DNA of 64,000 bases from Escherichia coli. Its GTDB lineage: Bacteria > Pseudomonadota > Gammaproteobacteria > Enterobacterales > Enterobacteriaceae. Below the pieces are notes generated by a model. It did not search any database, was not told where the DNA came from, and saw only the letters and a list, made by a program, of their open reading frames with translations. Within the stretch, counting starts at the first letter, position 1. Each line of letters starts with the position of its first letter. Positions 3,635-32,615 of this stretch are shown here, in pieces. A program made the translations under genes and the position numbers. Location of the stretch: assembly GCF_050920415.1 (NCBI RefSeq), contig NZ_CP169309.1. One strand, written 5' to 3'.

Positions 3635-6436
3635 TTATTCGACGTTCAGCGCGTCATTAACCAGATCTTGTTGCTGTTTCTGGTGAACGGACATATACCC
3701 TACCGCCGGAGAGGCGGAGGCCGGGCGGCCTGCATAACGCAGAGAAGCCCCAAACGGAATCACTTCACGGAAATGATGCTGGCTACAGTACCATGCGCCC
3801 TGGTTGAGCGGCTCTTCCTGGCACCAGACAAAATCCTTGACGTGAGCAAACTGCTGCAACACTTCCTGCATCGCTTTATGCGGGAACGGGTAGAGTTGCT
3901 CGATACGCACGATGGCGACATCGTGTTGATTGTTCTTACGACGTTGTTCCAGCAGGTCGTAATAAACCTTACCAGAACACATCACTACGCGCTTCACGCC
4001 CTTCGGATCAAGCTCGTCGATTTCACCAATGGCAGGCAGGAAGGTGCCGTTCGCCAGTTCTTCGAGGCTGGAAACCGCCAGCGGATGACGCAGCAGGGAT
4101 TTCGGCGACATCACCACCAGCGGACGACGCATCCCGCGCAGCGCCTGACGACGCAGCATATGGTAAACCTGTGCCGGGGTAGACGGTACGCACACCTGCA
4201 TGTTTTGTTCAGCACAAAGTTGCAGATAACGTTCCAGACGCGCGGAGGAGTGCTCCGGCCCTTGCCCTTCATACCCGTGCGGCAGCAGCATTACCAGACC
4301 ACACATCCGGCCCCATTTCTGTTCGCCAGAGGAGATGAACTGGTCGATAACCACCTGCGCACCGTTAGCGAAGTCACCAAACTGCGCTTCCCAGATGGTC
4401 AGCGTGCGCGGCTCTGCGGTGGCATAACCGTATTCAAACGCCAGCACTGCTTCTTCAGACAGTACGGAGTCCCAGACGCGGAACGCGCCCTGACCATTAT
4501 GGATATGTTGCAGCGGCGTGTAAGTGGAACCGTTGGACTGATTGTGGATCACCGCATGACGATGGAAGAAGGTACCGCGACCGGAGTCTTCACCCGACAG
4601 GCGGACCGGAATGCCTTCATCAACCAGCGTGGCGTAAGCGAGGTTTTCCGCGCCGCCCCAGTCGAACAGTTTCTCACCGGCAGCCATTGCCTGGCGATCG
4701 CCATAAATCTTGGCAACGCGAGACTGCATTTCAACCGCTTCCGGCACCGTACTGATACGTTTAGCCAGTTCCTGCAGGCGCTTCATCTCAACTTTGTTCG
4801 GGTACTCTTCGTCCCATTCGTGGTTGAGGTACGGCGACCAGGTGAAAGAGTGCATGTTCATCGGACGCCACTCTGCTACCACGCAATCGCCAGCATCCAG
4901 CGCATCACGGTACAGGTTAACCATCTCGGTGGCATCTTCCAGCGTCGCGACTTTTTCCTGCTCCAGCTTGTCAGCGTAGATTTTGCGCGGCGTCGGATGT
5001 TTTTTGATTTTCTGATACATCAGCGGCTGAGTTGCACTCGGCTCGTCGGCTTCGTTGTGGCCGTGACGGCGGTAGCACACCAGGTCGATGAAGACATCAC
5101 GTTTAAAGGTGTTACGGAAATCGAGCGCCAGACGGGTCACAAAGGCAACGGCTTCCGGATCATCCGCATTAACGTGGAAAATCGGTGCCTGTACCATCTT
5201 GCCGATATCAGTACAGTACGGCGTAGAACGGGCATCCAGCGGGTTAGAGGTAGTGAAACCGACCTGGTTGTTGATAACGATACGTACCGTACCGCCAACT
5301 TCATAACCACGCGCTTTCGACATGTTCAGGGTTTCCTGAACCACGCCCTGCCCGGTCACTGCGGCGTCACCGTGGATGGTGATTGGCAGCACTTTGTTGC
5401 TGCTCGGCTCATCGAGTCTGTCCAGACGGGCGCGAACAGAACCGATAACTACCGGGCTTACAATCTCAAGGTGAGACGGGTTAAACGCCAGCGCCAGGTG
5501 AACCAGGCCGCCGTCGGTCTGGAAGTCAGACGAGAAGCCCATGTGGTATTTCACGTCGCCCGTGCCGAGGTGTTCTTTATGTTTACCGGCAAACTCGTCG
5601 AACAAGTCTTGCGGTTTTTTACCCAGCACGTTAACCAGCACGTTCAGACGACCACGGTGCGCCATCCCGAGAACCACTTCACGGGTGCCGCTATTGCCAG
5701 CATGGCGGATAATCTCTTTAAGCATCGGGATTAACGCGTCACCGCCTTCCAGCGAGAAGCGTTTTGCGCCAGGGAATTTTGCGCCGAGGTAACGTTCAAG
5801 GCCTTCAGCGGCGGTCAGTTCGCTTAAGAAGCGTTTTTTCTCTTCGCTATTGAAAGTCGCGCGACCAGACTCGATACGCTGTTGGATCCAGCGTTTTTCT
5901 TCGGTGCTGGTAATGTGCATGTACTCGGCACCAATCGGGCCGCAGTAGGTTTGCTTGAGGGCTTCCAGCAGCTCGCCGAGTTTCATGGTTTCTTTGCCGC
6001 TGGCAAATGAACCGACGTTGAAGGTCTCCTGGAAGTCTGCTTCGGTCAGATCGTGGAAAGACGGATCCAGATCGGCCACTTTATCTTGCTGCCACAGTCC
6101 CAGCGGATCGAGATTCGCATGCTGGTGACCGCGGAAGCGGTATGCGTTAATGAGCTGCAGGACTTTAACCTGCTTCACATTGGTGTCAGGGTCGGAGATC
6201 GTTGAAGAGTAACGTGAAGCGTCTTTCGCCAGGCGGCGGAAATATTCACGCGTTTGAGAGTGGAATTGATCCGGTTTGACTCCCGTACCAGGTAACTGCT
6301 GGAACGTCGAACGCCAGTTAGCGTCAACCGAGTCAGGATCGGTTAAGAAGTCTTCATAGAGCTGTTCTATCCAGCTCTGGTTTGCGCCAGAGAGGTAAGA
6401 AGAGTCCAACCAGGCTTTCAAAGCGCTGTTCTGCAT
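3635..6436 (-). CDS. sucA: 2-oxoglutarate dehydrogenase E1 component
   Basis: 933 aa ORF starting [31 protein letters not shown]. Confidence 0.97.
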
Positions 6437-6609
6437 CGTGATCCCTTAAGCATCTTTTTTATGCTTACTTCGCCGTGGATACTACCACGCACAGTGATGT
6501 GCGTGCCGGGGTTCACTTGCGAGCTCTTGTCTACGTAGTGGCTCGCGAAGGAACCTTTAAAAACTGTCTTAGTGTCAGGGGCAGTTTTTAAAGATTTCCT
6601 GCATTTCTT

Positions 6610-6690
6610 TTGTAGGCCGGATAACGCATTCACGCCGCATCCGGCACTGGTTGCCTGATGCGACGCTTGTGCGTCTTATCAGGCCTGGGT
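6610..6690. repeat. REP elements in sdhB-sucA intergenic region
   Basis: tgtaggccggataa...gcatccggca and gcctgatgcgacgc...gcgtcttatcaggcc palindromic units. Confidence 0.75.
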
Positions 6691-7407
6691 TTACGCATTA
6701 CGCTGCAACAACATCGACTTGATATGGCCGATGGCGCGCGTCGGGTTCAGCCCCTTCGGACATACACTGACGCAGTTCATGATGCTGTGACAGCGGAATA
6801 CACTGAATGCATCGCTCAAACCGTCGAGGCGGCTGTCAGTCTCGGTATCACGGCTATCGATCAGGAAACGATATGCCGCTAACAAGCCTGCCGGGCCGAT
6901 AAACTTATCGGGATTCCACCAGAAAGACGGACAAGAGGTTGAACAACATGCGCAGAGAATACATTCATACAGCCCGTCGAGTTTTTCGCGCTGCTCTGGC
7001 ATCTGTAAATGCTCGCGAGCTGGCGGATTTTGTCCATTATTCAACAGGTAAGGCTTAATTTTCTCATATTGCGCATAGAATTGTCCCATGTCTACCACCA
7101 AATCGCGGATCACCGGTAAACCTGGCAGCGGGCGAATCACAATCTTCTTGCCCGGCTGGTTGAGTGCCGAAATCGGGGTAATACAGGCCAGACCATTCTT
7201 ACCGTTCATGTTCAGACCGTCGGAACCGCACACACCTTCACGGCAGGAACGACGGAACGACAGGCTGGGATCTTTCTCTTTCAACTGGATAAGCGCATCC
7301 AGCAGCATCATGTCGCGACCTTCTTCCGCTTCCAGGGTGTAATCCTGCATACGCGGAGCATCATCAACATCCGGGTTATAGCGATAAATTGAAAACTCGA
7401 GTCTCAT
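6691..7407 (-). CDS. sdhB: Succinate dehydrogenase iron-sulfur subunit
   Basis: 238 aa ORF with Fe-S cysteine clusters. Confidence 0.97.
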   Translation of the reverse strand: MRLEFSIYRYNPDVDDAPRMQDYTLEAEEGRDMMLLDALIQLKEKDPSLSFRRSCREGVCGSDGLNMNGKNGLACITPISALNQPGKKIVIRPLPGLPVIRDLVVDMGQFYAQYEKIKPYLLNNGQNPPAREHLQMPEQREKLDGLYECILCACCSTSCPSFWWNPDKFIGPAGLLAAYRFLIDSRDTETDSRLDGLSDAFSVFRCHSIMNCVSVCPKGLNPTRAIGHIKSMLLQRNA

Positions 7408-7422
7408 TTTCCTGTCTCCGCA

Positions 7423-9189
7423 TTAGTAAGTACGAATCTTCGGCGGGAATGCCGGGCGCAGTTTCGGTTCCATGTTGACGCTTCGGCGCGTCATGGATTC
7501 CGACTCTGGCAGATACAGGGAGTGGCACAGCCAGTTTTCATCATCACGATCTGGGAAGTCGAAGCGGCTATGCGCGCCACGGCTTTCGGTACGGAAGTTG
7601 GCAGAAACAGCCGTTGCATACGCCGTTTCCATCAGGTTATCCAGTTCCAGGCATTCAACGCGCTGGGTGTTGAACTCGCTGGAAGTGTCATCCAGACGGG
7701 CATTTTTCAAACGCTCGCGGATCACTTTCAACTGCTCAAGCCCTTTTGCCATCGCATCACCTTCACGGAAGACCGAGAAGTTATGCTGCATACATTCTTG
7801 CAGTGCTTTACGAATCGCCACTGGATCTTCACCATTACGGTTGTTGTTCCAGCGATTCAGACGCTCCAGAGACGCTTCAACATCAGACTCGCTGGCATCG
7901 CGCAGTGCGCCCTGCTCGGCAATAGACTCTTGCAGATGCAGGCCCGCTGCGCGACCAAAGACCACCAGGTCCAGCAGCGAGTTGCCGCCAAGACGGTTAG
8001 CGCCGTGTACCGATACACAAGCGATTTCACCTACCGCGAACAGCCCCGGAACAACCACATCTTCGCCTTTCTCGTTCACCGTCAGCGCCTGACCGGTCAC
8101 TTTGGTCGGAATACCGCCCATCATGTAGTGACAGGTTGGGATAACCGGAATCGGCTCTTTCACCGGATCGACGTGTGCGAAGGTACGGGAGAGTTCAAGG
8201 ATACCCGGCAGACGGGATTCGAGAACTTCTTTACCCAGGTGGTCGAGTTTCAGTTTTGCATGTGGCCCCCATGGACCATCACAGCCGCGACCTTCACGGA
8301 TTTCGATCATGATGGAACGCGCCACCACGTCACGGCCCGCCAGATCTTTGGCGTTCGGCGCATAACGCTCCATAAAGCGTTCGCCATGTTTGTTCAGCAG
8401 ATAACCGCCTTCACCACGGCAACCTTCGGTGACCAGTACGCCCGCACCTGCTATACCGGTCGGGTGGAACTGCCACATTTCCATATCCTGCACAGGTACA
8501 CCTGCACGGATAGCCATGCCGACGCCATCGCCGGTGTTAATGTGCGCGTTGGTGGTGGACTGATAAATACGCCCTGCCCCGCCGGTTGCCAGCACAGTCG
8601 CACGGGCTTTGAAGTAAACCACTTCACCGGTTTCGATGCACAGTGCGGTACAACCAACTACCGCGCCATCCTGGTTCTTCACCAGATCCAGCGCATACCA
8701 CTCGGAGAAAATGGTGGTGTGGTTTTTCAGGTTCTGCTGATAAAGCGTGTGCAACAGTGCGTGACCGGTACGGTCAGCTGCCGCCGCAGTACGTGCCGCT
8801 TGCTCGCCACCGAAGTTTTTCGACTGGCCGCCAAACGGACGTTGATAGATACGACCATCATCAAGACGCGAGAACGGTAGCCCCATGTGTTCCAGTTCCA
8901 GAATCGCTTCCGGCCCGGTTTTACACATATATTCAATCGCGTCCTGGTCACCGATATAGTCCGACCCTTTTACGGTGTCGTACATATGCCATTCCCAGTT
9001 ATCTTCATGGGTATTACCCAGCGCAACGGTAATGCCGCCTTGCGCAGAAACGGTATGGGAACGGGTCGGGAAGACTTTGGAGAGCAGCGCACAGGTTTGG
9101 CCGCTCTGGGAAATTTGCAGCGCCGCGCGCATACCTGCGCCACCGGCACCAATCACAACTGCATCAAATTCTCTGACTGGCAATTTCAT
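7423..9189 (-). CDS. sdhA: Succinate dehydrogenase flavoprotein subunit
   Basis: FAD-binding N-terminus [19 protein letters not shown]; start trimmed to internal ATG that overlaps the sdhD stop. Confidence 0.95.
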
Positions 9190-9536
9190 CACACACCCCA
9201 CACCACAACGAATCCATAAATCACGTAAACCACCAGTGCAACGACAATCACCAGTTGCAGCATCAGGCGCAAAGCCAGTGGTTTAACGTAGTCGGTCAAC
9301 ACCTGCCACATGCCGATCCAGGCATGGATCAAGATAGAAAACAGCGCCAGCAGGGTGAACACTTTGGTGAACGCAGAGGCGAAGAAACCAATCCAGACTT
9401 CATATGTCAGCTCGCCACTGGTAGCGAAAAAACCGACCATATAAATGATGTAGAGCGTCAGGACGATAGCGGTAGCGCGAACGAGGATAAAATCATGTAC
9501 GCCATTGCGTCCTAATGCGGAGGCGTTGCTTACCAT
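9189..9536 (-). CDS. sdhD: Succinate dehydrogenase membrane anchor subunit
   Basis: 115 aa hydrophobic ORF. Confidence 0.95.
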
Positions 9537-9919
9537 ACGAGGACTCCTGCGAGAAGTGAAAGCACGACAGTAATAACAAAGGAGATTTTGGCGGAGCGTT
9601 TACCCGCTTCGAATGTTTCTTCCAGATAGCCAAAATCCATCATCATGTGGCGAATACCTACGACGACGTGATACGCCAGAGCGGTAAGGATGCCCCACAT
9701 GATAAATTTGACGAAGAAGCTGCCCATAATCGCGGAAGCTTGCTCGAAACCTTCAGGGGAAGAGAGGCTGGTACCCAGAAGCCACAGCAGGATGCCCACT
9801 GCAACAAAGGTGATCACACCGGAAACGCGATGGAGAATGGACGCTATCGCCGTGACGGGGAACCGGATGGTCTGTAGGTCCAGATTAACAGGTCTTTGTT
9901 TTTTCACATTTCTTATCAT
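9530..9919 (-). CDS. sdhC: Succinate dehydrogenase cytochrome b556 subunit
   Basis: Start set at [15 protein letters not shown] (129 aa); the ORF-track start lies 5 codons upstream. Confidence 0.93.
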
Positions 9920-10627
9920 GAATAACGCCCACATGCTGTTCTTATTATTCCCTGGGGACTACGGGCACAGAGGTTAACTTTCTGTTACCTGGAGACGTCG
10001 GGATTTCCTTCCTCCGGTCTGCTTGCGGGTCAGACAGCGTCCTTTCTATAACTGCGCGTCATGCAAAACACTGCTTCCAGATGCGAAAACGACACGTTAC
10101 AACGCTGGGTGGCTCGGGATTGCAGGGTGTTCCGGAGACCTGGCGGCAGTATAGGCCGTTCACAAAATCATTACAATTAACCTACATATAGTTTGTCGGG
10201 TTTTATCCCGAACAGTGATCTGGGTCACGATAACAACATTTATTTAATTTTTAATCATCTAATTTGACAATCATTCAACAAAGTTGTTACAAACATCACT
10301 AGGAAAAGCATATAATGCGTAAAAGTTATGAAGTCAGTATTTCACCTAAGATTAACTTATGTAACAGTGTGGAAGTATTGACCAATTCATTCGGGACAGT
10401 TATTAGTGGTAGACAAGTTTAATAATTCGGATTGCTAAGTACTTGATTCGCCATTTATTCGTCATCAATGGATCCTTTACCTGCAAGCGCCCAGAGCTCT
10501 GTACCCAGGTTTTCCCCTCTTTCACAGAGCGGCGAGCCAAATAACAAACGGGTAAAGCCAGGTTGATGTGCGAAGGCAAATTTAAGTTCCGGCAGTCTTA
10601 CGCAATAAGGCGCTAAGGAGACCTTAA
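9920..10627. promoter_or_regulatory. Divergent sdhC / gltA promoter-regulatory region
   Basis: ~700 bp AT-rich non-coding spacer between divergent sdhC and gltA; individual binding sites not resolved. Confidence 0.55.
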
Positions 10628-11911
10628 ATGGCTGATACAAAAGCAAAACTCACCCTCAACGGGGACACAGCTGTTGAACTGGATGTGCTGAAAGGCACGC
10701 TGGGTCAAGATGTTATTGATATCCGTACTCTCGGTTCAAAAGGTGTGTTCACCTTTGACCCAGGCTTCACTTCAACCGCATCCTGCGAATCTAAAATTAC
10801 TTTTATTGATGGTGATGAAGGTATTTTGCTGCACCGCGGTTTCCCGATCGATCAGCTGGCGACCGATTCTAACTACCTGGAAGTTTGTTACATCCTGCTG
10901 AATGGTGAAAAACCAACTCAGGAACAGTATGACGAATTTAAAACTACGGTGACCCGTCATACCATGATCCACGAGCAGATTACCCGTCTGTTCCATGCTT
11001 TCCGTCGCGACTCGCATCCAATGGCAGTTATGTGTGGTATTACCGGCGCGCTGGCGGCGTTCTATCACGACTCGCTGGATGTTAACAATCCTCGTCATCG
11101 TGAAATTGCCGCGTTCCGCCTGCTGTCAAAAATGCCGACCATGGCCGCGATGTGTTACAAGTATTCCATTGGTCAGCCATTCGTTTACCCGCGCAACGAT
11201 CTCTCCTATGCCGGTAACTTCCTGAATATGATGTTCTCCACGCCGTGCGAACCGTATGAAGTTAATCCGATTCTGGAACGTGCTATGGACCGTATTCTGA
11301 TCCTGCACGCTGACCATGAACAGAACGCCTCTACCTCCACCGTGCGTACCGCTGGCTCTTCGGGGGCGAACCCGTTTGCCTGTATCGCAGCAGGTATTGC
11401 TTCGTTGTGGGGACCAGCGCACGGTGGTGCTAACGAAGCGGCTCTGAAAATGCTGGAAGAAATCAGCTCCGTTAAACACATTCCGGAATTTGTTCGTCGT
11501 GCGAAAGACAAGAATGACTCTTTCCGCCTGATGGGCTTCGGTCACCGCGTGTACAAAAACTACGACCCGCGCGCCACCGTCATGCGTGAAACCTGCCACG
11601 AAGTCCTGAAAGAGCTGGGCACGAAGGATGACCTGCTGGAAGTAGCTATGGAGCTGGAAAATATCGCGCTGAACGACCCGTACTTTATTGAGAAAAAACT
11701 GTACCCTAACGTCGATTTCTACTCTGGTATCATCCTGAAAGCGATGGGTATTCCGTCTTCCATGTTCACCGTCATATTCGCTATGGCACGTACAGTTGGC
11801 TGGATCGCCCACTGGAGCGAAATGCACAGTGATGGCATGAAGATTGCCCGTCCACGTCAGCTGTATACCGGCTATGAAAAACGCGATTTTAAAAGCGACA
11901 TCAAACGTTAA
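10628..11911 (+). CDS. gltA: Citrate synthase
   Basis: 427 aa ORF starting [36 protein letters not shown]. Confidence 0.97.
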
Positions 11912-11940
11912 CTGCTGATTCCTAAGCTGTAAATTCTGTT

Positions 11941-11971
11941 AACCCGCCTTTAAAAGGCGGGTTAATTTTTA
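11941..11971. terminator. Rho-independent terminator after gltA
   Basis: aacccgcctttaaaaggcgggtt stem-loop followed by a T-run. Confidence 0.8.
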
Positions 11972-12302
11972 TCTACCTGAACACAAAAAATGTAAAAATA
12001 AAATTAATTAACCGGCTGACATTAATATTGAAAAATAATAGAATTGTTCATTTTATCGGCAAAATAATAAATTTTAATTAAGGTATCTGCTTTTAGTTAC
12101 ATTTATAACCTCATGAAAATGAGGTATATCTCTCTCATTCCCCCCGATAACATTCATTAAATTATTAATTCATCACATCAATTAGTTAACCTTGCATTTA
12201 ATATAATTAATAATATTTTTAAGTAAAACTAAAAACATTCGACAATCAAATAAGATATTCTGATATCGCTATACTTTTTCTATTTCTGTAAAGGACTCAG
12301 TT

Positions 12303-12869
12303 ATGTTTAAAGGACAAAAAACATTGGCCGCATTGGCCGTATCTCTGTTATTCACTGCACCGGTTTATGCAGCTGATGAAGGTTCTGGTGAAATTCACTT
12401 TAAAGGTGAGGTTATAGAAGCACCATGTGAAATACATCATGATGATATTGATAAAGAAATTGAGCTAGGTCAGGTGACCACCAGCCACATTAATCAGTCT
12501 CATCACAGCGATGCGGTTGCTGTCGACCTGCGTTTAATCAACTGCGACCTGGAAAACTCTAATAACGGTTCCGGTGGCAAGATTTCTAAAGTCGCGGTCA
12601 CCTTCGATAGCTCAGCGAAAACCACTGGCGCAGATCCGATACTCAACAATACCAGCACTGGCGAAGCCACCGGTGTCGGCGTGCGTTTAATGAATAAGGA
12701 TCAAAGCAATATCATTTTAGGCACTGCTTCTCCGGATATCGACCTCGCACCAACGTCCAGTGAACAAACACTGAACTTCTTTGCCTGGATGGAACAAATT
12801 GATCAAGCGACACCAGTAACGGCAGGGGCTGTTACAGCGAATGCAACCTACGTACTGGATTATAAATAA
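12303..12869 (+). CDS. ybgD: Fimbrial subunit (chaperone-usher family)
   Basis: 188 aa ORF with signal peptide and fimbrial-subunit-like C-terminus; preceded by a very AT-rich leader. Confidence 0.9.
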   Translation: MFKGQKTLAALAVSLLFTAPVYAADEGSGEIHFKGEVIEAPCEIHHDDIDKEIELGQVTTSHINQSHHSDAVAVDLRLINCDLENSNNGSGGKISKVAVTFDSSAKTTGADPILNNTSTGEATGVGVRLMNKDQSNIILGTASPDIDLAPTSSEQTLNFFAWMEQIDQATPVTAGAVTANATYVLDYK

Positions 12870-12918
12870 GCGTTATTGGGCGGCATCACTGCCGCCTTTC
12901 TTAAAATATTTATCTGGT

Positions 12919-13431
12919 ATGGACACCGTGAATATTTATCGACTCTCTTTTGTATCCTGCCTGGTCATGGCGATGCCTTCCGCCATGGCGGTTGAATTCA
13001 ACCTGAATGTCCTCGACAAATCGATGCGTGAGCGCATTGATATTTCATTATTAAAGGAAAAAGGTGTCATTGCTCCCGGTGAATATTTTGTCAGCATTGC
13101 AGTAAATAATAACCAAATCAGTAATGGGCAAAAAATTAACTGGCAAAAAAAGGGTGACAATACCATTCCGTGCATCAATGATTTATTGGTCGATAAATTT
13201 GGCTTAAAACCTGAAGTCCGTCAGTCGTTACCCCTGATTAATCAGTGCGTCGATTTTAGCACCCGACCAGAAATGCTCTTCAATTTTGATCAGGCCAGTC
13301 AGCAACTGAATATCACCATCCCACAGGCCTGGCTGGCGTGGCACTCAGATAACTGGACTCCACCCTCCACATGGAAAGAAGGTGTCCCCGGTGTCCTGAT
13401 GGATTACAACTTGTTTGCCAGCAGCTACCGC
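12919..13431 (+). pseudogene. ybgQ: Fimbrial usher, N-terminal fragment (gene split by IS21-like insertion)
   Basis: Usher N-terminal domain reads up to ...DYNLFASSYR, then runs into the IS left end and a stop. Confidence 0.85.
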
Positions 13432-13532
13432 TGTCAGCGCCAATGATATAAGACAGTAATTCACCATTTGGATTGTCCGCTCCACCCAACATGTTGTTTC
13501 CTTAAGGTTCCTACACCACAAAGGGAACACTC

Positions 13533-14703
13533 ATGCTGAGCAGAGAGGACTTTTACATGATAAAGCAAATGCGCCAGCAAGGTGCGTATATTGTTGATAT
13601 TGCCACTCAGGTTGGTTGCTCTGAGCGGACTGTCAGACGGTACCTGAAATACCCGGAACCTCCGGCCAGAAAAACACGCCACAAAATGGCCAAACTCAAG
13701 CCGTTCATGGACTATATCGACATGCGTCTGGCTGAGAATGTCTGGAACGGCGAGGTCATCCTGGCGGAAATCAAAGCGATGGGTTATACCGGTGGCCGTT
13801 CCATGTTGCGTTACTACATCCAGCCCAAACGTAAGATGCGGCCATCGAAGAAAACGGTTCGCTTCGAAACTCAGCCCGGTTACCAGCTACAGCATGACTG
13901 GGGAGAAGTTGAGGCTGAGGTTGCCGGGCAACGATGCAGGGTTAACTTCGCGGTTAATACGCTGGGGTTCTCACGTCGCTTCCATGTCTTCGCGGCACCA
14001 AAGCAGGATGCTGAACATACCTATGAGTCACTGGTCCGCGCCTTTCGCTACTTCGGCGGCAGCGTGAAAACCGTGCTGGTCGATAACCAGAAAGCCGCAG
14101 TGCTGAAAAATAACAACGGGAAGGTGGTGTTCAACTCCGGGTTCCTGCTGCTGGCCGATCACTATGGCTTCCTGCCACGGGCCTGCCGTCCACGAAGGGC
14201 CAGAACCAAAGGTAAGGTGGAACGGATGGTGAAATACCTCAAGGAAAACTTCTTCGTCCGGTACCGCCGGTTCGACAGCTTCGCCCATGTTAATCAGCTA
14301 CTGGAGCAGTGGATGGCTGACGTTGCCGACAGGCGGGAACTTCGCCAGTTCAGGCAGACACCGGAACAGCGCTTCACGCAGGAACAGGTGCATCTGCAGG
14401 CGCTGCCAGGTACGGACTTCGATACCAGCTACTTCGATATCCGTCATGTCTCCTGGGATGGCTATATCGAGGTTGGCGGGAACCGTTACAGCGTGCCGGA
14501 AAGCCTGTGTGGCCAGCCGGTATCAATACGGATCTCGCTGGATGATGAACTGCGATTTACAGTAATGAGCAACAGGTAGCATCGCACCGTCTCTGTTCGG
14601 CTGTATACGGCTGGCAGACCGTGCCGGAGCATCACGCCCCACTCTGGCAGCAGGTCAGTCAGGTGGAACACAGGCCGTTGAGTGCCTATGAGGAGCTGTT
14701 GTG

Positions 14704-14704
<1 letters not shown>
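13533..14704 (+). pseudogene. istA: IS21-family transposase IstA, apparent -1 frameshift near 14550-14580
   Basis: 348 aa ORF (HTH + DDE) stops at 14579; the last ~40 codons continue in another frame and end with TGA overlapping the istB ATG. Confidence 0.7.
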
Positions 14705-15499
<795 letters not shown>

Positions 15500-15556
15500 T
15501 GACCAATAGCGGACATTAAAAATGGCGAAAAACGGCCAATAATCTTGGCGTTGACA

Positions 15557-17508
15557 ACCGCCCACAGGATGGCAGCAGCAGCACTAATCTTAACGCCTAC
15601 GGAACAGCCGGAATTAACGCGGGGGCATGGCGCTTACGCAGTGACTATCAGTTGAATCAAAATGATGGCAATGATAACCATGAACAGTCAGGCGAAATAT
15701 CACGTACCTATCTTTTTCGCCCGCTACCGCAATTAGGTTCAAAATTAACCCTCGGCGAAACGGATTTTAGTTCCAATATTTTCGACGGTTTTTCTTATAC
15801 CGGCGCGGCACTGGCGAGTGACGACCGGATGTTACCGTGGGAACTGCGCGGCTACGCTCCACAAATTAGCGGTATTGCACAAACCAATGCCACGGTGACG
15901 ATCAGTCAATCAGGCCGCGTCATCTACCAGAAAAAAGTCCCGCCAGGTCCGTTTATCATTGATGACCTTAATCAGTCCGTCCAGGGTACGTTGGATGTCA
16001 AAGTGACGGAAGAAGATGGTCGGGTGAACAATTTCCAGGTTTCGGCAGCATCGACGCCTTTCCTTACGCGCCAGGGGCAGGTTCGCTATAAACTTGCTGC
16101 CGGTCAGCCGCGAACATCTATGTCTCATCAAACTGAAAATGAAACCTTTTTTAGCAATGAAGTTTCCTGGGGGATGCTGTCAAATACCTCGCTGTACGGC
16201 GGCCTGCTGATTTCGGGTGACGACTACCATTCTGCCGCAATGGGTATCGGGCAAAATATGCTCTGGCTTGGCGCGCTATCGTTTGATGTCACCTGGGCCA
16301 GTAGTCAGTTTGATACTCAGCAGGACGAGCGGGGCTTAAGTTACCGCTTTAATTACAGCAAACAAGTGGATGCCACTAACAGCACGATTTCGCTCGCCGC
16401 TTATCGCTTCTCAGATCGTCATTTTCACAGCTACGCCAACTATCTGGATCACAAATACAACGACAACGATGCGCAGGACGAAAAACAGACGATCAGCTTA
16501 TCCGTGGGGCAACCGATTACCCCACTGAACCTCAATCTGTACGCCAACCTGCTGCATCAAACCTGGTGGAATGCAGACGCCTCCACGACCGCCAACATCA
16601 CGGCGGGTTTTAATGTTGATATTGGTAACTGGAGAGATATCTCTATTTCGACGTCATTCAATACAACCCATTACGAAGATAAAGATCGCGACAACCAGAT
16701 TTACCTGTCGATTTCGCTTCCCTTCGGTAACGGTGGTCGGGTCGGTTATGACATGCAAAACAGTAGCCACAGCACCACACACCGCATGTCGTGGAACGAT
16801 ACGCTGGATGAACGAAATAGCTGGGGGATGTCTGCTGGACTACAATCCGACCGTCCGGACAATGGAGCCCAGGTGAGCGGTAACTATCAGCACCTGAGTT
16901 CAGCGGGTGAGTGGGATCTTTCTGGTACTTATGCTGCCAATGACTACAGTTCTGTTAGCAGCAGCTGGAGTGGTTCTTTCACGGCGACGCAATATGGTGC
17001 AGCCTTCCATCGCCGCAGCTCCACCAATGAACCACGCCTGATGGTCAGCACCGATGGCGTGGCAGATATTCCGGTTCAGGGCAATCTCGACTACACCAAC
17101 CATTTTGGCATTGCAGTGGTACCGCTGGTTTCCAGTTATCAACCTTCCACCGTGGCCGTGAACATGAACGACTTACCCGACGGCGTGACGGTGACAGAAA
17201 ACGTCATCAAAGAAACGTGGATTGAAGGCGCAATAGGTTACAAATCACTGGCATCCCGTTCCGGTAAAGACATTAACGTCATCATTCGCAACGCCAGCGG
17301 TCAGTTCCCTCCCCTCGGTGCGGATATCCGTCAGGATGGCAGCAGCATTAGCGTGGGGATGGTTGGCGAGGAAGGACACGCCTGGTTAAGCGGAGTCGCT
17401 GAAAATCAAAAGTTTACCGTGGTCTGGGGTGATAGTCAGCGTTGCTCGATCCATCTTCCTGAACATATGGAAGACACCGCAAATCGCCTGATTTTACCTT
17501 GTCATTAA
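15557..17508 (+). pseudogene. ybgQ: Fimbrial usher, C-terminal fragment
   Basis: Frame continues RPQDGSSSTNLNAYGTAGINAGAWRLRSDYQ... (usher barrel and C-terminal domains); in frame with the N-fragment once the IS and one TSD copy are removed. Confidence 0.85.
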
Positions 17509-17522
17509 TTAAGGAAATGAAA

Positions 17523-18254
17523 ATGACATTTATGAAAGGACTTCCCCTTTTGTTGTTGGTTACCAGTCTGTGTAGCCACGCTGCACTACAACCCGACCGC
17601 ACTCGCATTGTGTTTAACGCTAATGATAAAGCTACCAGTCTGCGAGTAGATAATCGTAGCGATAAACTCCCCTACCTCGCTTATTCCTGGCTCGAAAATG
17701 AAAAAGGGGAGAAAAGCGACGATCTTCTGGTCGCCCTGCCACCGATACAACGTCTGGAACCGAAAGCAACAACGCAGGTGCGGATAGTCAAGCAAGCCTC
17801 GACCGCGAAATTACCGGGCGATCGCGAAACGCTATTTTTCTACAATATGCGTGAAATTCCTCCCGCCCCGGAAAAAAACAGCGACCATGCCGTTCTGCAA
17901 GTCGCCATCCAGAGCCGTATCAAGGTGTTCTGGCGACCGTCTGCATTACGCAAGAAAGCAGGAGAAAAGGTCGAACTGCAGTTACAGGTCAGCCAGCAGG
18001 GCAATCAGCTTAGCTTAAAAAACCCTACTGGCTATTATCTGACCATCGCGTATCTTGGGCGAAATGAGCAAAGCGTTCTCCCGGGCTTCAAAACTGTGAT
18101 GATTGCGCCTTTTAGTACAGTAAGTACAACCACTGGAAATTATAGTGGCAGCCAGTTTTATCTCGGTTATATGGATGATTATGGCGCATTACGCATGACA
18201 ACGCTCAACTGTAACGGGCAATGCCGTTTACAGGCTGTGGAGGCGAAGAAATGA
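17523..18254 (+). CDS. ybgP: Fimbrial periplasmic chaperone
   Basis: PapD-like ORF; start chosen at ATG 7 nt after an AGGA RBS. Confidence 0.9.
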
Positions 18255-19312
18255 GTGCTGGCAAGGGATTGTTGCTCATCATCTGTCTGTTATTTCTACC
18301 GTTAAAATCTGCGCTTGCCCTGAACTGTTACTTTGGTTCATCCGGTGGTTCGGTAGAAAAATCGGAATCTATTCAACCATTTGCTGTGCCAGGGAATGCC
18401 AAACCCGGCGATAAGATCTGGGAGTCTGACGATATTAAAATTCCCGTCTATTGTGACAACAATACTAACGGCAACTTTGAGAGCGAGCATGTCTACGCCT
18501 GGGTAAACCCGTACCCGGGAATTCAGGATCGCTATTATCAACTCGGCGTAACTTACAATGGTGTTGATTATGATGCTAACCAGGGAAAAAGCCGCATCGA
18601 CACTAACCAGTGCATCGACAGCAAAAACATTAATATTTATACCCCTGAGCAGATCATCGCGATGGGATGGCAGAACAAAATTTGCTCTGGTGATCCCAAT
18701 AATATTCATATGTCGCGTACGTTTCTCGCTCGCATGCGGTTATACGTCAAGATACGAGAGATACCGCCGCATGATTATCAAAGTACGCTCAGCGATTACA
18801 TTGTGGTGCAATTTGATGGCGAAGGAAGCATTAATGAGGACCCAACCGCCCAAAACCTGAAATATCATATTACCGGTCTGGAAAACATTCGGGTATTGGA
18901 TTGCAGCGTCAATTTTTCTATTACCCCAGCCAACCAGGTCATTGATTTTGGTAAATTTAATGTACTGGATATCCGGCGACACAACATGACAAAAACATTC
19001 GGTATTAAAACGACAAAATCACAAAACGATCAATGTACCGACGGATTCAAAGTCAGCTCCTCGTTTTATACCGAAGAAACGTTGGTTGAAGAAGATAAAG
19101 CATTGCTGATTGGTAATGGTCTGAAACTACGTTTACTGGATGAAAACGCTTCGCCCTATACCTTCAACAAATACAGCGAATATGCCGACTTCACCAGTGA
19201 CATGCTGATCTACGAAAAAACCTATACGGCTGAACTTTCGTCTATTCCCGGCACTCCCATTGAGGCTGGCTCCTTCGATACCGTGGTGCTTTTTAAGATT
19301 AACTATAACTAA
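18251..19312 (+). CDS. ybgO: Fimbrial adhesin-like protein
   Basis: 353 aa from [15 protein letters not shown]... with signal peptide; ATGA overlap with ybgP. Confidence 0.88.
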
Positions 19313-19320
19313 TTTCCCAT

Positions 19321-19353
19321 GATGCCCTTTGCAACCGAAAGGGCATCTCTTTC
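19321..19353. terminator. Rho-independent terminator after ybgO
   Basis: gatgcccttt...aaagggcatc hairpin followed by tctttc. Confidence 0.7.
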
Positions 19354-19462
19354 AGAAAATTGCTGATTTTCCCCTTTTCCTTGATTGCTGTTATTTTTTC
19401 CTGGCCCGGCTTTCTTTATGCTGTATCGATACACCAAAGAGAAAATAATGAGGAAGCGAAGG

Positions 19463-20509
19463 ATGCCAGTTTTGCAGTGGGGAATGTTATGTGTGCTTTC
19501 ACTTCTCCTTTCTATTGGCTTCCTCGCGGTACATCTTCCGGCGGCACTATTACTTGGGCCAATGATCGCCGGAATCATCTTTAGTATGCGCGGAATTACT
19601 CTGCAACTTCCCCGATCCGCTTTTCTCGCCGCCCAAGCCATTCTTGGCTGCATGATTGCACAAAACCTAACCGGTTCGATTCTCACCACGCTAGCGGTGA
19701 ACTGGCCGATTGTGTTAGCTATTTTACTGGTGACGTTACTTTCCAGCGCCATCGTGGGTTGGTTATTGGTGCGCTATAGCTCACTGCCTGGAAATACCGG
19801 TGCCTGGGGTTCTTCTCCTGGCGGCGCGGCGGCAATGGTCGCTATGGCGCAAGATTACGGCGCAGATATTCGCCTGGTGGCATTTATGCAATATCTGCGA
19901 GTGCTGTTCGTCGCGGGGGCCGCTGTTCTGGTCACCCGCATGATGCTGGGCGATAACGCTGAAGCGGTTAACCAGCAGATCGTCTGGTTCCCGCCAGTGA
20001 GCATTAATCTCCTGCTTACAATTTTGCTCGCGGTCGCTGCCGGTACGGCGGGATGCTTGCTACGTCTTCCTTCCGGCACGATGCTCATCCCGATGCTGGC
20101 AGGCGCGCTGCTCCAGTCTGGTGAGTACATAACCATCGAACTACCGGAATGGCTTCTGGCGATAGCCTATATGGCAATTGGCTGGCGGATTGGTCTTGGT
20201 TTCGATAAACAAATATTACTGCGAGCATTGCGCCCGCTACCGCAAATCTTGCTGTCGATTTTTGCTCTGCTGGCTATTTGTGCAGGTATGGCGTGGGGAC
20301 TGACCCGGTTTATGCATATTGATTTTATGACTGCCTACCTCGCCACCAGTCCCGGCGGGCTTGATACCGTGGCGGTCATCGCCGCAGGGAGCAATGCCGA
20401 TATGGCGCTTATTATGGCGATGCAAACCCTACGCCTGTTCAGTATTTTGCTGACGGGGCCAGCCATTGCGCGGTTTATTTCAACCTATGCGCCGAAGCGG
20501 TCGGCCTAG
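19463..20509 (+). CDS. abrB: AbrB-family membrane protein (putative regulator/transporter)
   Basis: 348 aa polytopic membrane ORF from [12 protein letters not shown]...; convergent 4-bp overlap with nei. Confidence 0.9.
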
Positions 20510-21297
20510 TGCTGGCAGCCTGGACACCAGTAAAACGGGCGCGAGGACAACGTGGTTTTCTCAATGATGCTGCCACAACGTTCGCACGGTTCGCCATCAC
20601 GATGAAAAACCTTAAAGCGAAACAGCGCCCCATGATGTTTATTCTCATCCACCTGCCCCCGCGTAGCGTAAGAAAGTCGAGGAATCTCCAGTAACGCGTG
20701 TGCGAGTGCATCCAGTTGCGCCGCATTGAGATCTTTCGCTTTATGATTGCCGGTTAACCCCACCTGCCAGAGGATCTCCACCCGCAAATAATTGCCAAGC
20801 CCAGCCAGAAACGCCTGATCGAGTAGTAATCCAGCAAACTGACGGTTACGAAAGCGCGGCGACAATAACCGTTCTTTCGCCGCCTCCGGCGTCAGTTTCG
20901 GATCCAGCACATCGGGGCCAACGCGTTGTAAAAACGGATGCGTGGTCAGTTGTTCCGGGGTCAACATCTCAATATCCGAGGCGCTATAAAGCAGAATGGT
21001 TTTGTCAGCCGTTTGCAGTTTTACCCGCAATACTCGCGTGGTCTGCGGCTCTTCGCCGGTATCAACCACGCGCCAGACGCCGTAAAGCTGATTATGGCTG
21101 TAGAGCGTTAACCCGTTGGAAAAATGAGTTAACAACGCCTTACCTCGCGTTTCCACATGGGTAACGTGTTGACCGATAAGTTGTGATTGATAAGGTTTTA
21201 ACTGCGGGAAGGCAAACCAGACATCAGTTAGAGGTTTGCCTTTGATCGCCGCCTCCAGGTTATCCGCTGCACGGCGGATCTCCGGGCCTTCAGGCAT
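20506..21297 (-). CDS. nei: Endonuclease VIII (DNA glycosylase/AP lyase)
   Basis: 263 aa, N-terminal [10 protein letters not shown]-terminal zinc finger CERCG...CPGCQ. Confidence 0.96.
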
Positions 21298-21332
21298 GGT
21301 GATATCCTTTTTTCATTCTTTATTAAGCGGGG

Positions 21333-22067
21333 TTATGCTGCGACAACAATCCCCTTTTCGGCAAATGTAGAGCGTAGTCGGCGGGCGAACGCCAGTGCGT
21401 GTTCTCCATCGCCATGCAGGCAGACCGTTTGCGCCGTGACCGTTGCCCATTCGCCGTTGATACTTTTGACTCTGCCGTGTTGCACCATCTCCAACGTTTG
21501 CGCCAGCGCCTGTTCTTCGTTTTCAATCAACGCGCCTGGCTGGCTTCGCGGCACCAGCGAGCCGTCAGCCTGATAACCGCGATCGGCAAACACTTCCTCG
21601 CGCGTTGTCAGGCCATATTGCTTGCCTGCACGAATCAGCTCGCTTCCCGCCAGCCCGACGAGAATCAATGCCGGATCGCAAGCGTAAACCGCTCTGGCGA
21701 TGGCGTCTGCCAGTTGTGCCTCTTTCGCCGCCTGGTTGTATAACATGCCGTGCGGTTTGACATGACGCATTACGCCGCCTTGCGCACGGGCAATCGCTGC
21801 CAGCGCGCCAATTTGATACAGCGTCTGGGCATAAACGGTTTCTGGCGGCAGCTGCATAGCGCTGCGACCAAAATTTTCCCTGTCGGGAAAACTCGGATGA
21901 GCGCCAATCGCGACACCATTTTTTATTGCTTCACGCACGCAAGCGTGCATGATTTGCGCATCGCCAGCATGAAATCCACAGGCAATATTGGCAGAGGAAA
22001 CCAGCGTTAATAGCTCTGCGTCGCTGACACAGCCTTCGCCCAGATCGGCGTTCAGGTCAATTTTCAT
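21333..22067 (-). CDS. pxpA: 5-oxoprolinase subunit A (LamB/YcsF family)
   Basis: 244 aa ORF starting [12 protein letters not shown]. Confidence 0.93.
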
Positions 22068-22989
22068 TGTGCAGCCGCCACGCTAATTGTTCGAAATAAC
22101 GTTGCTGATCTTGCCGTGCTTTCAGTGCCTCTTCCAGTGAACACTGGACAAAATGAATCGGCTGACCGAGCGGAATTTGCGCCAGATGGTACATATCAGC
22201 CTCAATGATACAGGCAATACGCGGATAACCACCGGTGGTCTGTGCGTCGTTCATCAATACAATCGGCTGGCCGTTATGCGGCACCTGCACCACGCCCGGC
22301 AACAAACCATGAGATAACAGTTCGCGATCGGTGGTGCGTTTTAAAATTTGCCCCTGTAAGCGATAACCCATACGGTTACTTTGCGGACTAAGCTGCCACG
22401 GCGAACGCCAGAATGCATCCTGCGAGGCGCGATCGAACTCATGATATTCCGGCCCCGGCAAGGCGCGAATGCGGTTGCCCCACAGCAGCTGTTTAACGCC
22501 CTGCGCTTCCATAAAATCACGCTTCGATTTGCCCATCGGGAGTCGGTCACCATCCTTCAGTAAACGGCCTTCCAGCCCACCAATCCCCACTTTAAGATCG
22601 GTACTGCATGACCCCATTACCGGCGGAACATCAATACCACCCGCGACCGCCAGATAACTGCGCATCCCGTGCTGCGGGCGTTTAAGCGTTAAACGCTGGC
22701 CTGCTTTCATCGGCAATCGCCAGCCAGTCCAGACGGCATTATCATCCAGCCGCGCTTCGCAACCTGCCCCCGTCAGGGCAAACCAACCATCAGTTTCGAA
22801 CTCTACCGTTAACTGACCGAGCGTTATCTCCAGCGCGGGGGCATTGGCGTCATTACCCACCAGCAGGTTAGCAATGCGTAACGCAGGCATATCCAGTGCG
22901 CCGCAGTGGCTGATACCAGACTGGCGAAAACCGTGACGACCGCCATCCTGCACAGTGGTATACATGCCCGCACGAATAATCTTCAGCAT
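22057..22989 (-). CDS. pxpC: 5-oxoprolinase subunit C
   Basis: 310 aa ORF in operon with pxpA and pxpB. Confidence 0.92.
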
Positions 22990-23639
22990 ACTCCCTCCTT
23001 CTGCGGTACAAAGCGCACGCTGTCTCCCGGACGTAATAAGATGGGTTCGTCACGCGCCGGATCAAACAGGCTGAGTGAGGTATGACCAATCAACTGCCAG
23101 CCGCCCGGCGTTGCCAGCGGATAAACACCGGTCTGCGGCCCGCCGATCCCGACAGAACCTGCCGGAACGAGCAAGCGCGGTTCAGCGCGCCGTGGCGTGT
23201 GTAGTTGTTCCGGCAAACTCCCGAGATACGGGAAGCCCGGTTGAAAACCTAAAAACCAGACCACGTATTCCACAGAGGAGTGCAATTCAACAACCTGTTT
23301 TTCGCTCAATCCACAATGCGCCGCGACCACCGCCAAATCCGGTCCGCCTGCGCCACCGTAAACCACCGGAATTTCAATAAAACGAGACTCCGGCTCCAGC
23401 GCCTCACTCTCCTCCCACCAGCGTTGCAAACGCTCTATGGCATCCAGCGCCAGCGACTCAGGATTACGTAAAATCACCGTGATATTGTTCATGCCGGGAA
23501 TGGCTTCAACCACATTCGGCATATCCACCAGACGCTGCGCCAGTCGCCAGATCCGTTTCTGGCTAGCCAGCGTCACCGGCGGTTCCAGCTCCAGCACTAC
23601 CGCCGTTTCACCTATCAGATAACAACGCGCTCGTTGCAC
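22983..23639 (-). CDS. pxpB: 5-oxoprolinase subunit B
   Basis: 218 aa ORF. Confidence 0.92.
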
Positions 23640-23661
23640 TTTCGATCCCTCTGATTATTCG

Positions 23662-24405
23662 TTATGCAGGATTAGGAATATCAATAAAGGTCACATCAAG
23701 ATCGGTATTTTCATTCAGCCACTCACTCAATGCGCGAATACCACCGCGTTCAGTGGCATGGTGACCCGCAGCATAAAAATGCAATCCCTGCTCGCGGGCT
23801 GAATGAATGGTCTGTTCAGAAACTTCGCCAGTAATAAAAGCATCCACGCCAAAACGCGCGGCGCTATCGATAAAACTTTGCCCGCCGCCCGTGCACCAGG
23901 CAACGCGCTGAATCACCTCAGGTCCGGTATCGCCACACCATAACGGCTTACGTCCCAGACGCGCTTCAATCCAGGAAGCCAATTCCAGTCCCGGCACAGG
24001 CATAGTCAGTTCGCCCCACGGCACTAACGGCTCAATTTCACCCAAGACCGTAATCCCAAGTAACGCCGCCAGCTGTGCGTTATTGCCCAGCTCCGGATGC
24101 GCGTCCAACGGCAGATGCCAGCCATACAGGTTGATATCATTCGCCAACAATGTTTTTAAGCGGTTACGCTTCATACCGCGAATTACTGGCGATTCCCCTT
24201 TCCAGAAATAACCATGATGCACAATGACCGCATCCGCGCCCAGACGCACCGCTTCATCGAGCAAAGCCTGGCTGGCGGTGACACCGGTAACAATTTTTTG
24301 CACCGTCTCTTTGCCTTCCACCTGCAAACCATTCGGCGCGTAATCACTAATCGCCGCGCTGTTCAGTTTTTCGTTAATCAGTTGTTCCAGTTCGGTGTTT
24401 TTCAT
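23662..24405 (-). CDS. ybgI: Nif3-family metal-binding protein (GTP cyclohydrolase 1 type 2 homolog)
   Basis: 247 aa ORF. Confidence 0.92.
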   Translation of the reverse strand: MKNTELEQLINEKLNSAAISDYAPNGLQVEGKETVQKIVTGVTASQALLDEAVRLGADAVIVHHGYFWKGESPVIRGMKRNRLKTLLANDINLYGWHLPLDAHPELGNNAQLAALLGITVLGEIEPLVPWGELTMPVPGLELASWIEARLGRKPLWCGDTGPEVIQRVAWCTGGGQSFIDSAARFGVDAFITGEVSEQTIHSAREQGLHFYAAGHHATERGGIRALSEWLNENTDLDVTFIDIPNPA

Positions 24406-30353: not shown

Positions 30354-30481
30354 AGCCTCCTCCTGCCTACAGTTGGGCTGTGATGCAGACTAGACTGGCC
30401 CCCTGAATCTCCAGACAACCAGTATCACTTAAATAAGTGATAGTCTTAATACTAGTTTTTAGACTAGTCATTGGAGAACAG

Positions 30482-30847
30482 ATGATTGATGTCTTAGGGC
30501 CGGAGAAACGCAGACGGCGTACCACACAGGAAAAGATCGCAATTGTTCAGCAGAGCTTTGAACCGGGGATGACGGTCTCCCTCGTTGCCCGGCAACATGG
30601 TGTAGCAGCCAGCCAGTTATTTCTCTGGCGTAAGCAATACCAGGAAGGAAGTCTTACTGCTGTCGCCGCCGGAGAACAGGTTGTTCCTGCCTCTGAACTT
30701 GCTGCCGCCATGAAGCAGATTAAAGAACTCCAGCGCCTGCTCGGCAAGAAAACGATGGAAAATGAACTCCTCAAAGAAGCCGTTGAATATGGACGGGCAA
30801 AAAAGTGGATAGCGCACGCGCCCTTATTGCCCGGGGATGGGGAGTAA
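30482..30847 (+). CDS. insC: IS2 OrfA (InsC)
   Basis: [30 protein letters not shown]... 121 aa. Confidence 0.93.
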
Positions 30848-31710
30848 GCTTAGTCAGCCGTTGTCTCCGGGTGTCGCGTGCGCAGTTGCACGTCATTCTC
30901 AGACGAACCGATGACTGGATGGATGGCCGCCGCAGTCGTCACACTGATGATACGGATGTGCTTCTCCGTATACACCATGTTATCGGAGAGCTGCCCACGT
31001 ATGGTTATCGTCGGGTATGGGCGCTGCTTCGCAGACAGGCAGAACTTGATGGTATGCCTGCAATCAATGCCAAACGTGTTTACCGGATCATGCGCCAGAA
31101 TGCGCTGTTGCTTGAGCGAAAACCTGCTGTACCGCCATCGAAACGGGCACATACAGGCAGAGTGGCCGTGAAAGAAAGCAATCAGCGATGGTGCTCTGAC
31201 GGGTTCGAGTTCTGCTGTGATAACGGAGAGAGACTGCGTGTCACGTTCGCGCTGGACTGCTGTGATCGTGAGGCACTGCACTGGGCGGTGACTACTGGCG
31301 GCTTCAACAGTGAAACAGTACAGGACGTCATGCTGGGAGCGGTGGAACGCCGCTTCGGCAACGATCTTCCGTCGTCTCCAGTGGAGTGGCTGACGGATAA
31401 TGGTTCATGCTACCGGGCTAATGAAACACGCCAGTTCGCCCGGATGTTGGGACTTGAACCGAAGAACACGGCGGTGCGGAGTCCGGAGAGTAACGGAATA
31501 GCAGAGAGCTTCGTGAAAACGATAAAGCGTGACTACATCAGTATCATGCCCAAACCAGACGGGTTAACGGCAGCAAAGAACCTTGCAGAGGCGTTCGAGC
31601 ATTATAACGAATGGCATCCGCATAGTGCGCTGGGTTATCGCTCGCCACGGGAATATCTGCGGCAGCGGGCTTGTAATGGGTTAAGTGATAACAGATGTCT
31701 GGAAATATAG
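30805..31710 (+). CDS. insD: IS2 OrfB transposase (InsD, DDE)
   Basis: 301 aa ORF overlapping insC in the -1 frame. Confidence 0.93.
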
Positions 31711-32342: not shown

Positions 32343-32615
32343 TTATATTTTAAAGCATCCTAGCCCCTGCGATGCTCGCCATCGTTTTAACTCATCAACA
32401 ATCCCTTGGGGACTATCTTCTCTATCTTCAGATGGATAGAATATCAAATCACTACCATCTGGGTGCTGAGTGATTCTAATAAAATGACTTACAAGATCAT
32501 CAATAAACTTCGACAATTTATCGCCATGCAATTCCTCAGGTGGTTCAAAAAAATTATTTAGAAGTTCGATAAATTCATCTTCCGTATAATCTTCTAGATT
32601 ATTTTTAAACTCCAT
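32343..32615 (-). CDS. Colicin/pyocin DNase immunity protein (Im9-like)
   Basis: 90 aa; aligns with recalled Im9: DYTE.EF, HP(D/S)GSDLI(F/Y)YP, (D/E)DSP.GIV, (K/Q)WRA; starts 14 nt after the vgrG stop. Confidence 0.88.
   Translation of the reverse strand: MEFKNNLEDYTEDEFIELLNNFFEPPEELHGDKLSKFIDDLVSHFIRITQHPDGSDLIFYPSEDREDSPQGIVDELKRWRASQGLGCFKI

Follow-up and report, generated by a model that had tools for sequence, protein, structure and literature searches.

The AT-rich interval between gltA and ybgD in the Escherichia coli chromosome analysed here (positions 11967 to 12302) very probably serves the cryptic Ybg chaperone–usher fimbrial operon as promoter region and regulatory spacer, and we infer that the promoter used by the operon lies within it. 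Very likely, H-NS binds this spacer and is the main reason why the ybg operon is cryptic; its binding to the allele present here is suggested by the base composition and by analogy with the orthologous spacer of strain K-12. All coordinates refer to the window, i.e., the whole stretch of DNA that was analysed (64 kb).

The ybg locus and its split usher gene

The window is a piece of E. coli chromosome in which the local gene order is sdhCDAB (minus strand), gltA, spacer, ybgD, split ybgQ, ybgP, ybgO, abrB and nei. The genes in the gltA–abrB interval constitute the Ybg chaperone–usher fimbrial operon (ybgD-ybgQ-ybgP-ybgO), syntenic with that of K-12. The upstream neighbour, gltA (10628-11911, plus strand), delimited as an open reading frame and by the RefSeq annotation of the near-identical genome of strain MFDS1022581, encodes a citrate synthase identical to K-12 GltA (WP_000785834.1). 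The end of gltA and the start of ybgD bound a spacer of 391 bp (11912-12302). At its downstream edge, the Shine–Dalgarno sequence AAAGGA and the ATG of ybgD (12290-12305, plus strand) are near-invariant in the alignments of all four alleles compared (see below), with one variable base at 12299. The only small open reading frame on the plus strand of the spacer is a 24-aa frame that overlaps the end of gltA; on the minus strand, there are two (27-28 aa), both unsupported.

All genes of the operon are on the plus strand. The first, ybgD (12303-12869), specifies a fimbrial major subunit of 188 amino acids (Pfam Fimbrial, PF00419, E = 2.4e-29; RefSeq “fimbrial protein” WP_000472411.1). The usher gene ybgQ is present as an N-terminal fragment (12919-13433; Pfam PapC_N, E = 2.7e-35), annotated as a pseudogene lacking the C-terminus, and a C-terminal fragment (15557-17508, with an open frame from 15559; Pfam Usher, E = 4e-189, and PapC_C). 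Downstream, ybgP (17523-18254) encodes the periplasmic chaperone (Pfam PapD_N and PapD_C) and ybgO (18251-19312; RefSeq ybgO) a putative tip/adhesin subunit, with a weak C-terminal Pfam Fimbrial match (E = 2.6e-4) under the curated cut-off. The GC content of the ybg operon is 47.7% versus 51.5% for the window, and the GC3 of ybgD is 41% versus 56% for gltA.

The two usher fragments are separated by an IS21-like element of the ISEc62 family (13434-15556, plus strand; 2,123 bp), which was recognised as a gap in the BLAST alignment with K-12, by direct reading of its ends (TGTCAG...GTTGACA), by the istA/istB annotation and by the rve and Mu-transposase C domains. It is flanked by a 5-bp target duplication, ACCGC (13429-13433 and 15557-15561), and the K-12 alignment of the usher breaks at 13431/15557. 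The element parts the PapC_N domain from the usher barrel; both fragments are otherwise open, the C-terminal one containing no internal stop codons. The usher insertion described in the sequence-only reading is thus confirmed by the alignment gap, the ends and target duplication, the IstA and IstB proteins and the split Pfam usher domains alike. As the insertion splits the usher gene, the ybg operon is dead in this strain. The junction between the element and the usher occurs in one out of 5,426 complete E. coli genomes, from which we conclude that the insertion is recent and lineage-specific.

The IS21-like copy differs at four positions from that of the nearest genome, three of them being 1-bp indels; by these differences, istA is truncated in the window (348 aa versus 390 aa). 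The istB gene, annotated as frameshifted in the nearest genome, differs here by two 1-bp indels. The indels reflect either genuine decay of the element or sequencing errors in homopolymers.

Within the 50 kb compared, 12 small changes (SNPs and 1-bp indels) and an additional IS2 copy distinguish the window from strain MFDS1022581. Mobile elements aside, the sole difference in the first 28 kb is a G/A SNP at 12241, in the AT-rich spacer, where the G is shared with allele EC07. The extra IS2 copy (30392-31721; InsC-like 136-aa and InsD-like 301-aa ORFs), absent from MFDS1022581, adjoins an ISAs1 fragment and the frameshifted reverse transcriptase of a group II intron; a truncated vgrG and a pyocin/immunity pair of the S type lie directly beside them.

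What follows gltA varies among E. coli strains: it is the ybg operon, or a ybgO remnant alone beside abrB, or, replacing ybg, a set of TRAP transporter genes immediately behind gltA. When one genome per species was scanned for exact matches to the ybgD start region, only two contaminant contigs came up, probably because the E. coli representative is devoid of ybg. The two matching contigs, labelled Alkalicoccobacillus porphyridii (309 bp) and Collinsella (a 3.2-kb contig of a metagenome-assembled genome), are almost certainly E. coli contamination.

Composition, promoter-like sites and alleles of the spacer

The sequence-only reading had noticed about 300 bp of more than 75% A+T between the gltA terminator and ybgD. 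Both the composition and the placement hold: positions 12000-12302 are 75.9% A+T versus 48.5% across the window, which ranks in the top 0.1% among all 303-bp windows, the AT maximum of the window lies here, and the stretch is enclosed by the terminator stem (11938-11966) and the ybgD start (12303). The most AT-rich 303-bp stretch of the 64 kb starts at 11962 (77.6% A+T), and the AT-rich sequence sets in at about 11967, directly after the gltA terminator, rather than at 12000. Taken as a whole, the spacer (11912-12302) is 73.7% A+T, against 47-61% in the nearby intergenic regions measured. The frequency of TpA is about threefold that of the window (13.2% versus 4.5%), and the spacer holds three of the six AT-only stretches in the window that measure 16 bp or more; within the spacer, neither count is above that of composition-preserving shuffles.

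The next most AT-rich 303-bp windows (68-71% A+T), all well below the ybgD spacer, are found at 10157-10469, 32385-32777 and 44546-44930. The first of these lies in the gltA/sdhC divergent promoter region, also marked as H-NS-bound in K-12 by SELEX; the second spans the pyocin–vgrG region and the third that upstream of speF.

The AT-rich sequence is bipartite. An upstream block of 79% A+T (11967-12104), including AT-only runs at 11993-12011 (19 bp) and 12061-12081 (21 bp), is separated from a downstream block, also of 79% A+T (12149-12302), by a less AT-rich island of 44 bp (12105-12148; 59% A+T), which carries the hairpin CCTCATgaaaATGAGG (12109-12124) and a run of six Cs. The downstream block harbours the longest AT-only run of the window (27 bp, 12196-12222) and a conserved sequence, AATAATATTTTTAAGnAAAACTAAAAAC (12208-12238).

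At the upstream edge of the spacer, the terminator scan and folding identified the gltA intrinsic terminator (11938-11972, plus strand), consisting of a 13-bp stem (11938-11966) with a 3-nt loop, followed by TTTTTAT. It has a folding energy of -20.1 kcal/mol (z = -4.74), none of 200 shuffles being equally stable, and in the scan of 4000-23999 it ranks first amongst the terminator-like sites listed, with the longest stem and the most G-C pairs.

Promoter-like sites crowd in the spacer: with a scanner simpler than PlatProm, six of the 20 sites in a 20-kb stretch, including the best match of that stretch, fell within 334 bp of spacer (two on the plus and four on the minus strand), the remaining 14 being spread over ~19.7 kb. 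This corresponds to ~18 sites per kb in the spacer versus ~0.7 per kb elsewhere. Dense, overlapping promoter-like signals on both strands over at least 300 bp, the density by which “promoter islands” are defined, are thus present in the spacer; the site count within it is not above that of composition-preserving shuffles.

Three predicted promoters on the plus strand deserve mention. Candidate a (11978-12004), TGAACA-15-TAAAAT, is by alignment the ortholog of the K-12 ybgD promoter assigned by SELEX (see below); it is located in the best-conserved block of the spacer, and its hexamers are spaced by 15 nt here and by 16 nt in K-12. Candidate b (12016-12044), CTGACA-17-TAGAAT, matches the sigma-70 consensus at 10 out of 12 positions and is the best sigma-70 match in the 20 kb scanned; it is specific to this allele, as its hexamers are not preserved in the K-12, EC07 or B alleles. 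Candidate c (12186-12214), TTAACC-17-AATAAT, with 9 out of 12 matches, is the closest to ybgD and overlaps a conserved block.

The K-12 spacer, located at 752,796-753,184 of U00096.3, is colinear with that of the window (389 versus 391 bp). The flanking core genes are 95-100% identical to those of K-12, while identity drops to 68% in 12000-12199 and to 69% in mid-ybgD, the spacer being ~74% identical overall. In the four alleles compared (window, K-12, EC07 and B), the A+T content is held at 69-74% despite 25-30% sequence divergence. The blocks common to the alleles are the terminator stem, retained in all four; AACAyAAAAAATTGTAAAAAT (11980-11999), which holds candidate promoter a; AATAATATTTTTAAGnAAAACTAAAAAC; and GATATTCT. 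The ribosome-binding site, the start codon and the signal-peptide region of ybgD are also almost invariant between alleles.

The spacer and ybgD together (11969-12869) form a hotspot of divergence, far above the median diversity of ~0.02 reported for H-NS-bound intergenic regions. The allele of spacer and ybgD found in the window (at least 99% identity) occurs in 18 of 5,426 complete E. coli genomes, and the next full-length matches among those listed are ~75% identical and of the K-12 type. Seventeen of the same-allele genomes match in one collinear piece; the eighteenth differs solely by an IS1 insertion. In that genome, E200086 (NZ_CM128605.1; a human isolate from Mali), an IS1A resides in the spacer at the equivalent of window positions 12087-12096, ~210 bp upstream of ybgD, and the usher is intact.

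Probable H-NS binding and the alternative explanations

Published H-NS ChIP data concern the K-12 ortholog. The K-12 ybgD/gltA spacer is “promoter island” 751980_413, coded “A”, which denotes binding by H-NS in every ChIP-chip study compared (Grainger, Oshima, Kahramanoglou), and the region was flagged as foreign by three of five methods (PMC3661553, Table 1). Genomic SELEX placed an H-NS site in the K-12 spacer as well as a site for the RpoD holoenzyme, TAAACA-16-TAAAAT, assigned to ybgD as a “constitutive promoter” (PMC3946193, Table 2). The RpoD holoenzyme binds the K-12 spacer in vitro (PMC3946193). The SELEX-chip promoter is just the best hexamer match inside a low-resolution peak. In a ChAP-seq study of 2016, the transcription unit ybgQPO was flagged as H-NS-bound (PMC4720273, S2 Table, abrB row), and ybgQ has been termed an H-NS-regulated gene (PMC12455589). 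H-NS-bound regions keep their positions across E. coli phylogroups, and H-NS-bound upstream regions evolve faster (PMC4720273). In A+T content, the allele of the window (73.7%) does not fall short of the K-12 allele (71.0%), for which binding was measured.

PMC3559732, citing Korea et al. 2010, describes H-NS as a repressor of the cryptic chaperone–usher fimbriae of commensal E. coli; upon artificial expression, the K-12 ybg operon is reported to be functional and to promote adhesion (Korea et al. 2010, as cited in PMC6033998). Our literature search, in sources other than Korea et al. 2010, found no primary measurement of ybgD expression in an hns mutant. The ybg genes are detectably transcribed in some isolates of Shiga toxin-producing E. 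coli (STEC) (PMC6033998), and ybgD rises upon overproduction of BolA (PMC4337573); the operon is therefore “silent” only conditionally.

The sequence-only reading of the locus as a cryptic fimbrial operon silenced by H-NS, and inactivated by the usher insertion, is supported by H-NS binding to the K-12 ortholog and by the insertion itself; as to horizontal acquisition, three of five methods flag the K-12 region as foreign. Ybg is a “core-associated” fimbrial type, often disrupted, at a fixed position in E. coli (PMC3559732), so that “horizontally acquired” must mean an old acquisition.

In the window itself, near-matches to the high-affinity H-NS motif TCGATAAATT are 4-5 times denser in the spacer than across the window; no site in the spacer has one mismatch or less, and the counts at two or three mismatches equal those of shuffles. 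Beyond base composition, nothing in the sequence points to H-NS.

We propose that silencing would come about as follows. The gltA terminator at the 5′ edge of the spacer would halt read-through from the strongly expressed gltA gene and thereby insulate ybg. The two blocks of 79% A+T, TpA-rich and with long AT-only runs, carry overlapping sigma-70-like hexamer pairs on both strands, in the pattern of a putative “promoter island”, and the same composition would let H-NS (with StpA and Hha) bind them with high affinity. Polymerising over the ybgD promoter or promoters, H-NS would then keep the operon silent in ordinary growth. Base composition, rather than a specific phased or curved architecture, would be the property that counts, given that alleles 25-30% apart are all 69-74% A+T. 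The recent IS21-like insertion, by parting the N-terminal domain of the usher from its barrel, additionally renders the operon genetically dead in this strain.

Judging by its sequence, candidate promoter b, which is near-consensus (10 out of 12 matches) and missing in the three other alleles compared, could allow more leakage from silencing in this allele. Were it partly to escape H-NS, the lineage would have expressed Ybg fimbriae, and the IS events on this rare divergent allele (the IS21-like element in the usher of the window and the IS1A in the spacer of E200086) would be selected changes of expression state, not neutral decay; we hold this extension to be very doubtful.

An architectural explanation would have the spacer act as intrinsically curved DNA, helically phased A-tracts giving a static bend that nucleates H-NS or serves as an upstream promoter element. 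The spacer does contain 24 A/T tracts of at least 4 bp, and local bends of ~16 degrees per turn are predicted near 11980 and 12060 (top 0.4% of window positions) and of ~13 degrees near 12210; the bends located ~70 and ~300 bp from the spacer start are also seen in the three other alleles compared, and the one at ~147 bp in two of these. These local bends are what the base composition of the spacer yields by chance. The phased A/T tracts of the sequence-only reading could not be substantiated, as the AA/TT Fourier power at 10-11.5 bp does not exceed that of 2000 dinucleotide-preserving shuffles (p = 0.69) and homopolymer tracts are not significantly enriched (p = 0.09). The curvature prediction that it had suggested as a check showed no excess over dinucleotide shuffles either (mean, p = 0.58; maximum, p = 0.49; strongly bent positions, p = 0.49); the wedge parameters, and hence the absolute curvature values, are approximate, a circumstance on which the comparison with shuffles does not depend. 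A role for curvature is, therefore, unlikely. It is equally unlikely that most of the spacer is transcribed as a 5′ leader of ~250-300 nt, starting at a promoter immediately downstream of the gltA terminator, with a cis-regulatory RNA such as an attenuator, a thermosensor or an sRNA target. The K-12 SELEX promoter is at the far upstream end of the spacer and transcripts from its ortholog (11978-12004), which is part of the best-conserved block, would have a leader of ~290 nt; however, that promoter was called from the best hexamers within a low-resolution peak, and it is the centre of the putative leader that has diverged most (68% identity to K-12). Moreover, RNA from 12010-12320 folds no better than shuffles (z = +0.57), and the palindrome of the only local hairpin, CCTCATgaaaATGAGG, is not conserved in the other alleles, for which reason we assign it no function. 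Rfam gave no credible match in the spacer, only three hits below threshold (E = 0.04-0.7), none of which reaches a third of its gathering score; each of them covers the terminator on the minus strand. The AT-rich stretch is at most a putative leader in the sense of a transcribed 5′ UTR.

Phase variation is common among fimbrial operons, and one might suspect a switch in the spacer, either a fimS-like invertible segment or a pap-like Dam/Lrp methylation switch. An inverted repeat of 18 nt (11993-12010 / 12204-12221; 16 out of 18 complementary) brackets 193 bp, exceeds 100 of 100 dinucleotide shuffles (mean 13.7, maximum 15) and has its arms on the two best-conserved blocks of the spacer. However, both arms are AT-only, for which the shuffle null is too lenient (we estimate p ~0.01-0.05 for two such runs), and by inspection the extended repeat is only 11-12/18 in the K-12, EC07 and B alleles. 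Furthermore, no recombinase gene is adjacent, the flanks being gltA and ybgD, and no inverted form exists among the 18 same-allele genomes. For these reasons, we judge the repeat to be a chance match and reject a fimS-type invertible switch. The pap-type switch, which requires two GATC sites ~100 bp apart within Lrp sites, is excluded as there is no GATC anywhere in 11912-12302. A switch of either kind is, overall, exceedingly improbable. Finally, the AT-richness might be a passive by-product of mutational AT bias and relaxed constraint at a decaying, unexpressed non-coding locus, with no silencing role, crypticity being due to weak promoters or missing activators. The extreme divergence of the spacer between alleles, the fact that only its composition is statistically unusual, and the frequent disruption or deletion of the ybg operon in E. 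coli (PMC3559732) would all fit. Against this speak the maintenance of 69-74% A+T in four of four alleles despite 25-30% divergence, the several conserved blocks, the directly measured binding of H-NS and RNA polymerase to the K-12 spacer (PMC3661553, PMC3946193) and the reported function of the K-12 operon when artificially expressed (Korea et al. 2010, as cited in PMC6033998). We thus regard a purely passive origin with no silencing role as quite unlikely, although H-NS binding is compatible with a composition that arose by passive AT drift. Silencing by H-NS, targeted by base composition, is the reading that we retain.

Relation to known systems

As an AT-rich regulatory region before a cryptic fimbrial operon, probably covered by H-NS, the spacer is a textbook example, and the value of its identification lies mainly in correct annotation. 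Targeting of H-NS would be explained here by base composition, with no need for phasing or curvature, and alleles ~25-30% apart have the same A+T content. The spacer and ybgD are, moreover, a hotspot of allelic divergence and IS insertion, and so provide a convenient natural test set for the sequence change that an H-NS-silenced promoter tolerates.

Listed H-NS-bound promoter islands beside the first fimbrial gene are, as for ybg, found upstream of yadN, sfmA, elfA/ycb, yehD, yfcV, yraH and fimA/fimB/fimE (PMC3661553, Table 1), and other cryptic chaperone–usher operons are, like ybg, poorly expressed in the laboratory and described as H-NS-repressed (PMC3559732). The fim operon differs by its invertible switch, which is served by dedicated recombinases; in the ybg spacer, neither such a switch nor GATC sites are seen, and no regulator gene adjoins it.

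The H-NS-silenced bgl operon is activated by insertion of IS1 or IS5 in its AT-rich upstream silencer. The ybg locus is alike in being a cryptic operon with an AT-rich, H-NS-bound upstream region, and the ybg spacer of E200086 carries an IS1A with an intact usher. This insertion resembles those that activate bgl, and an activation of ybg by the IS1A would be hypothetical. Unlike in bgl, the IS in the window strain sits in the usher coding region, where it inactivates the operon instead of activating it.

The closest known counterpart is K-12 promoter island 751980_413 itself, which is the same locus, with colinearity over the whole interval between the gltA terminator and the start of ybgD, the same conserved blocks, similarly dense promoter-like hexamers and an A+T content of 71% (versus 74% here). 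The window allele differs from it in being only ~74% identical, rare and equipped with a candidate promoter of its own, CTGACA-17-TAGAAT; binding of H-NS and RNA polymerase was measured for the K-12 allele only. Since this counterpart has already been published as an H-NS-bound region, our finding is correct but ordinary. What the window adds to the known AT-rich, H-NS-bound ybgD spacer of K-12 is an allele that is rare, divergent and endowed with a strong promoter-like site of its own; the IS1 that another isolate carries in the spacer comes on top of this.
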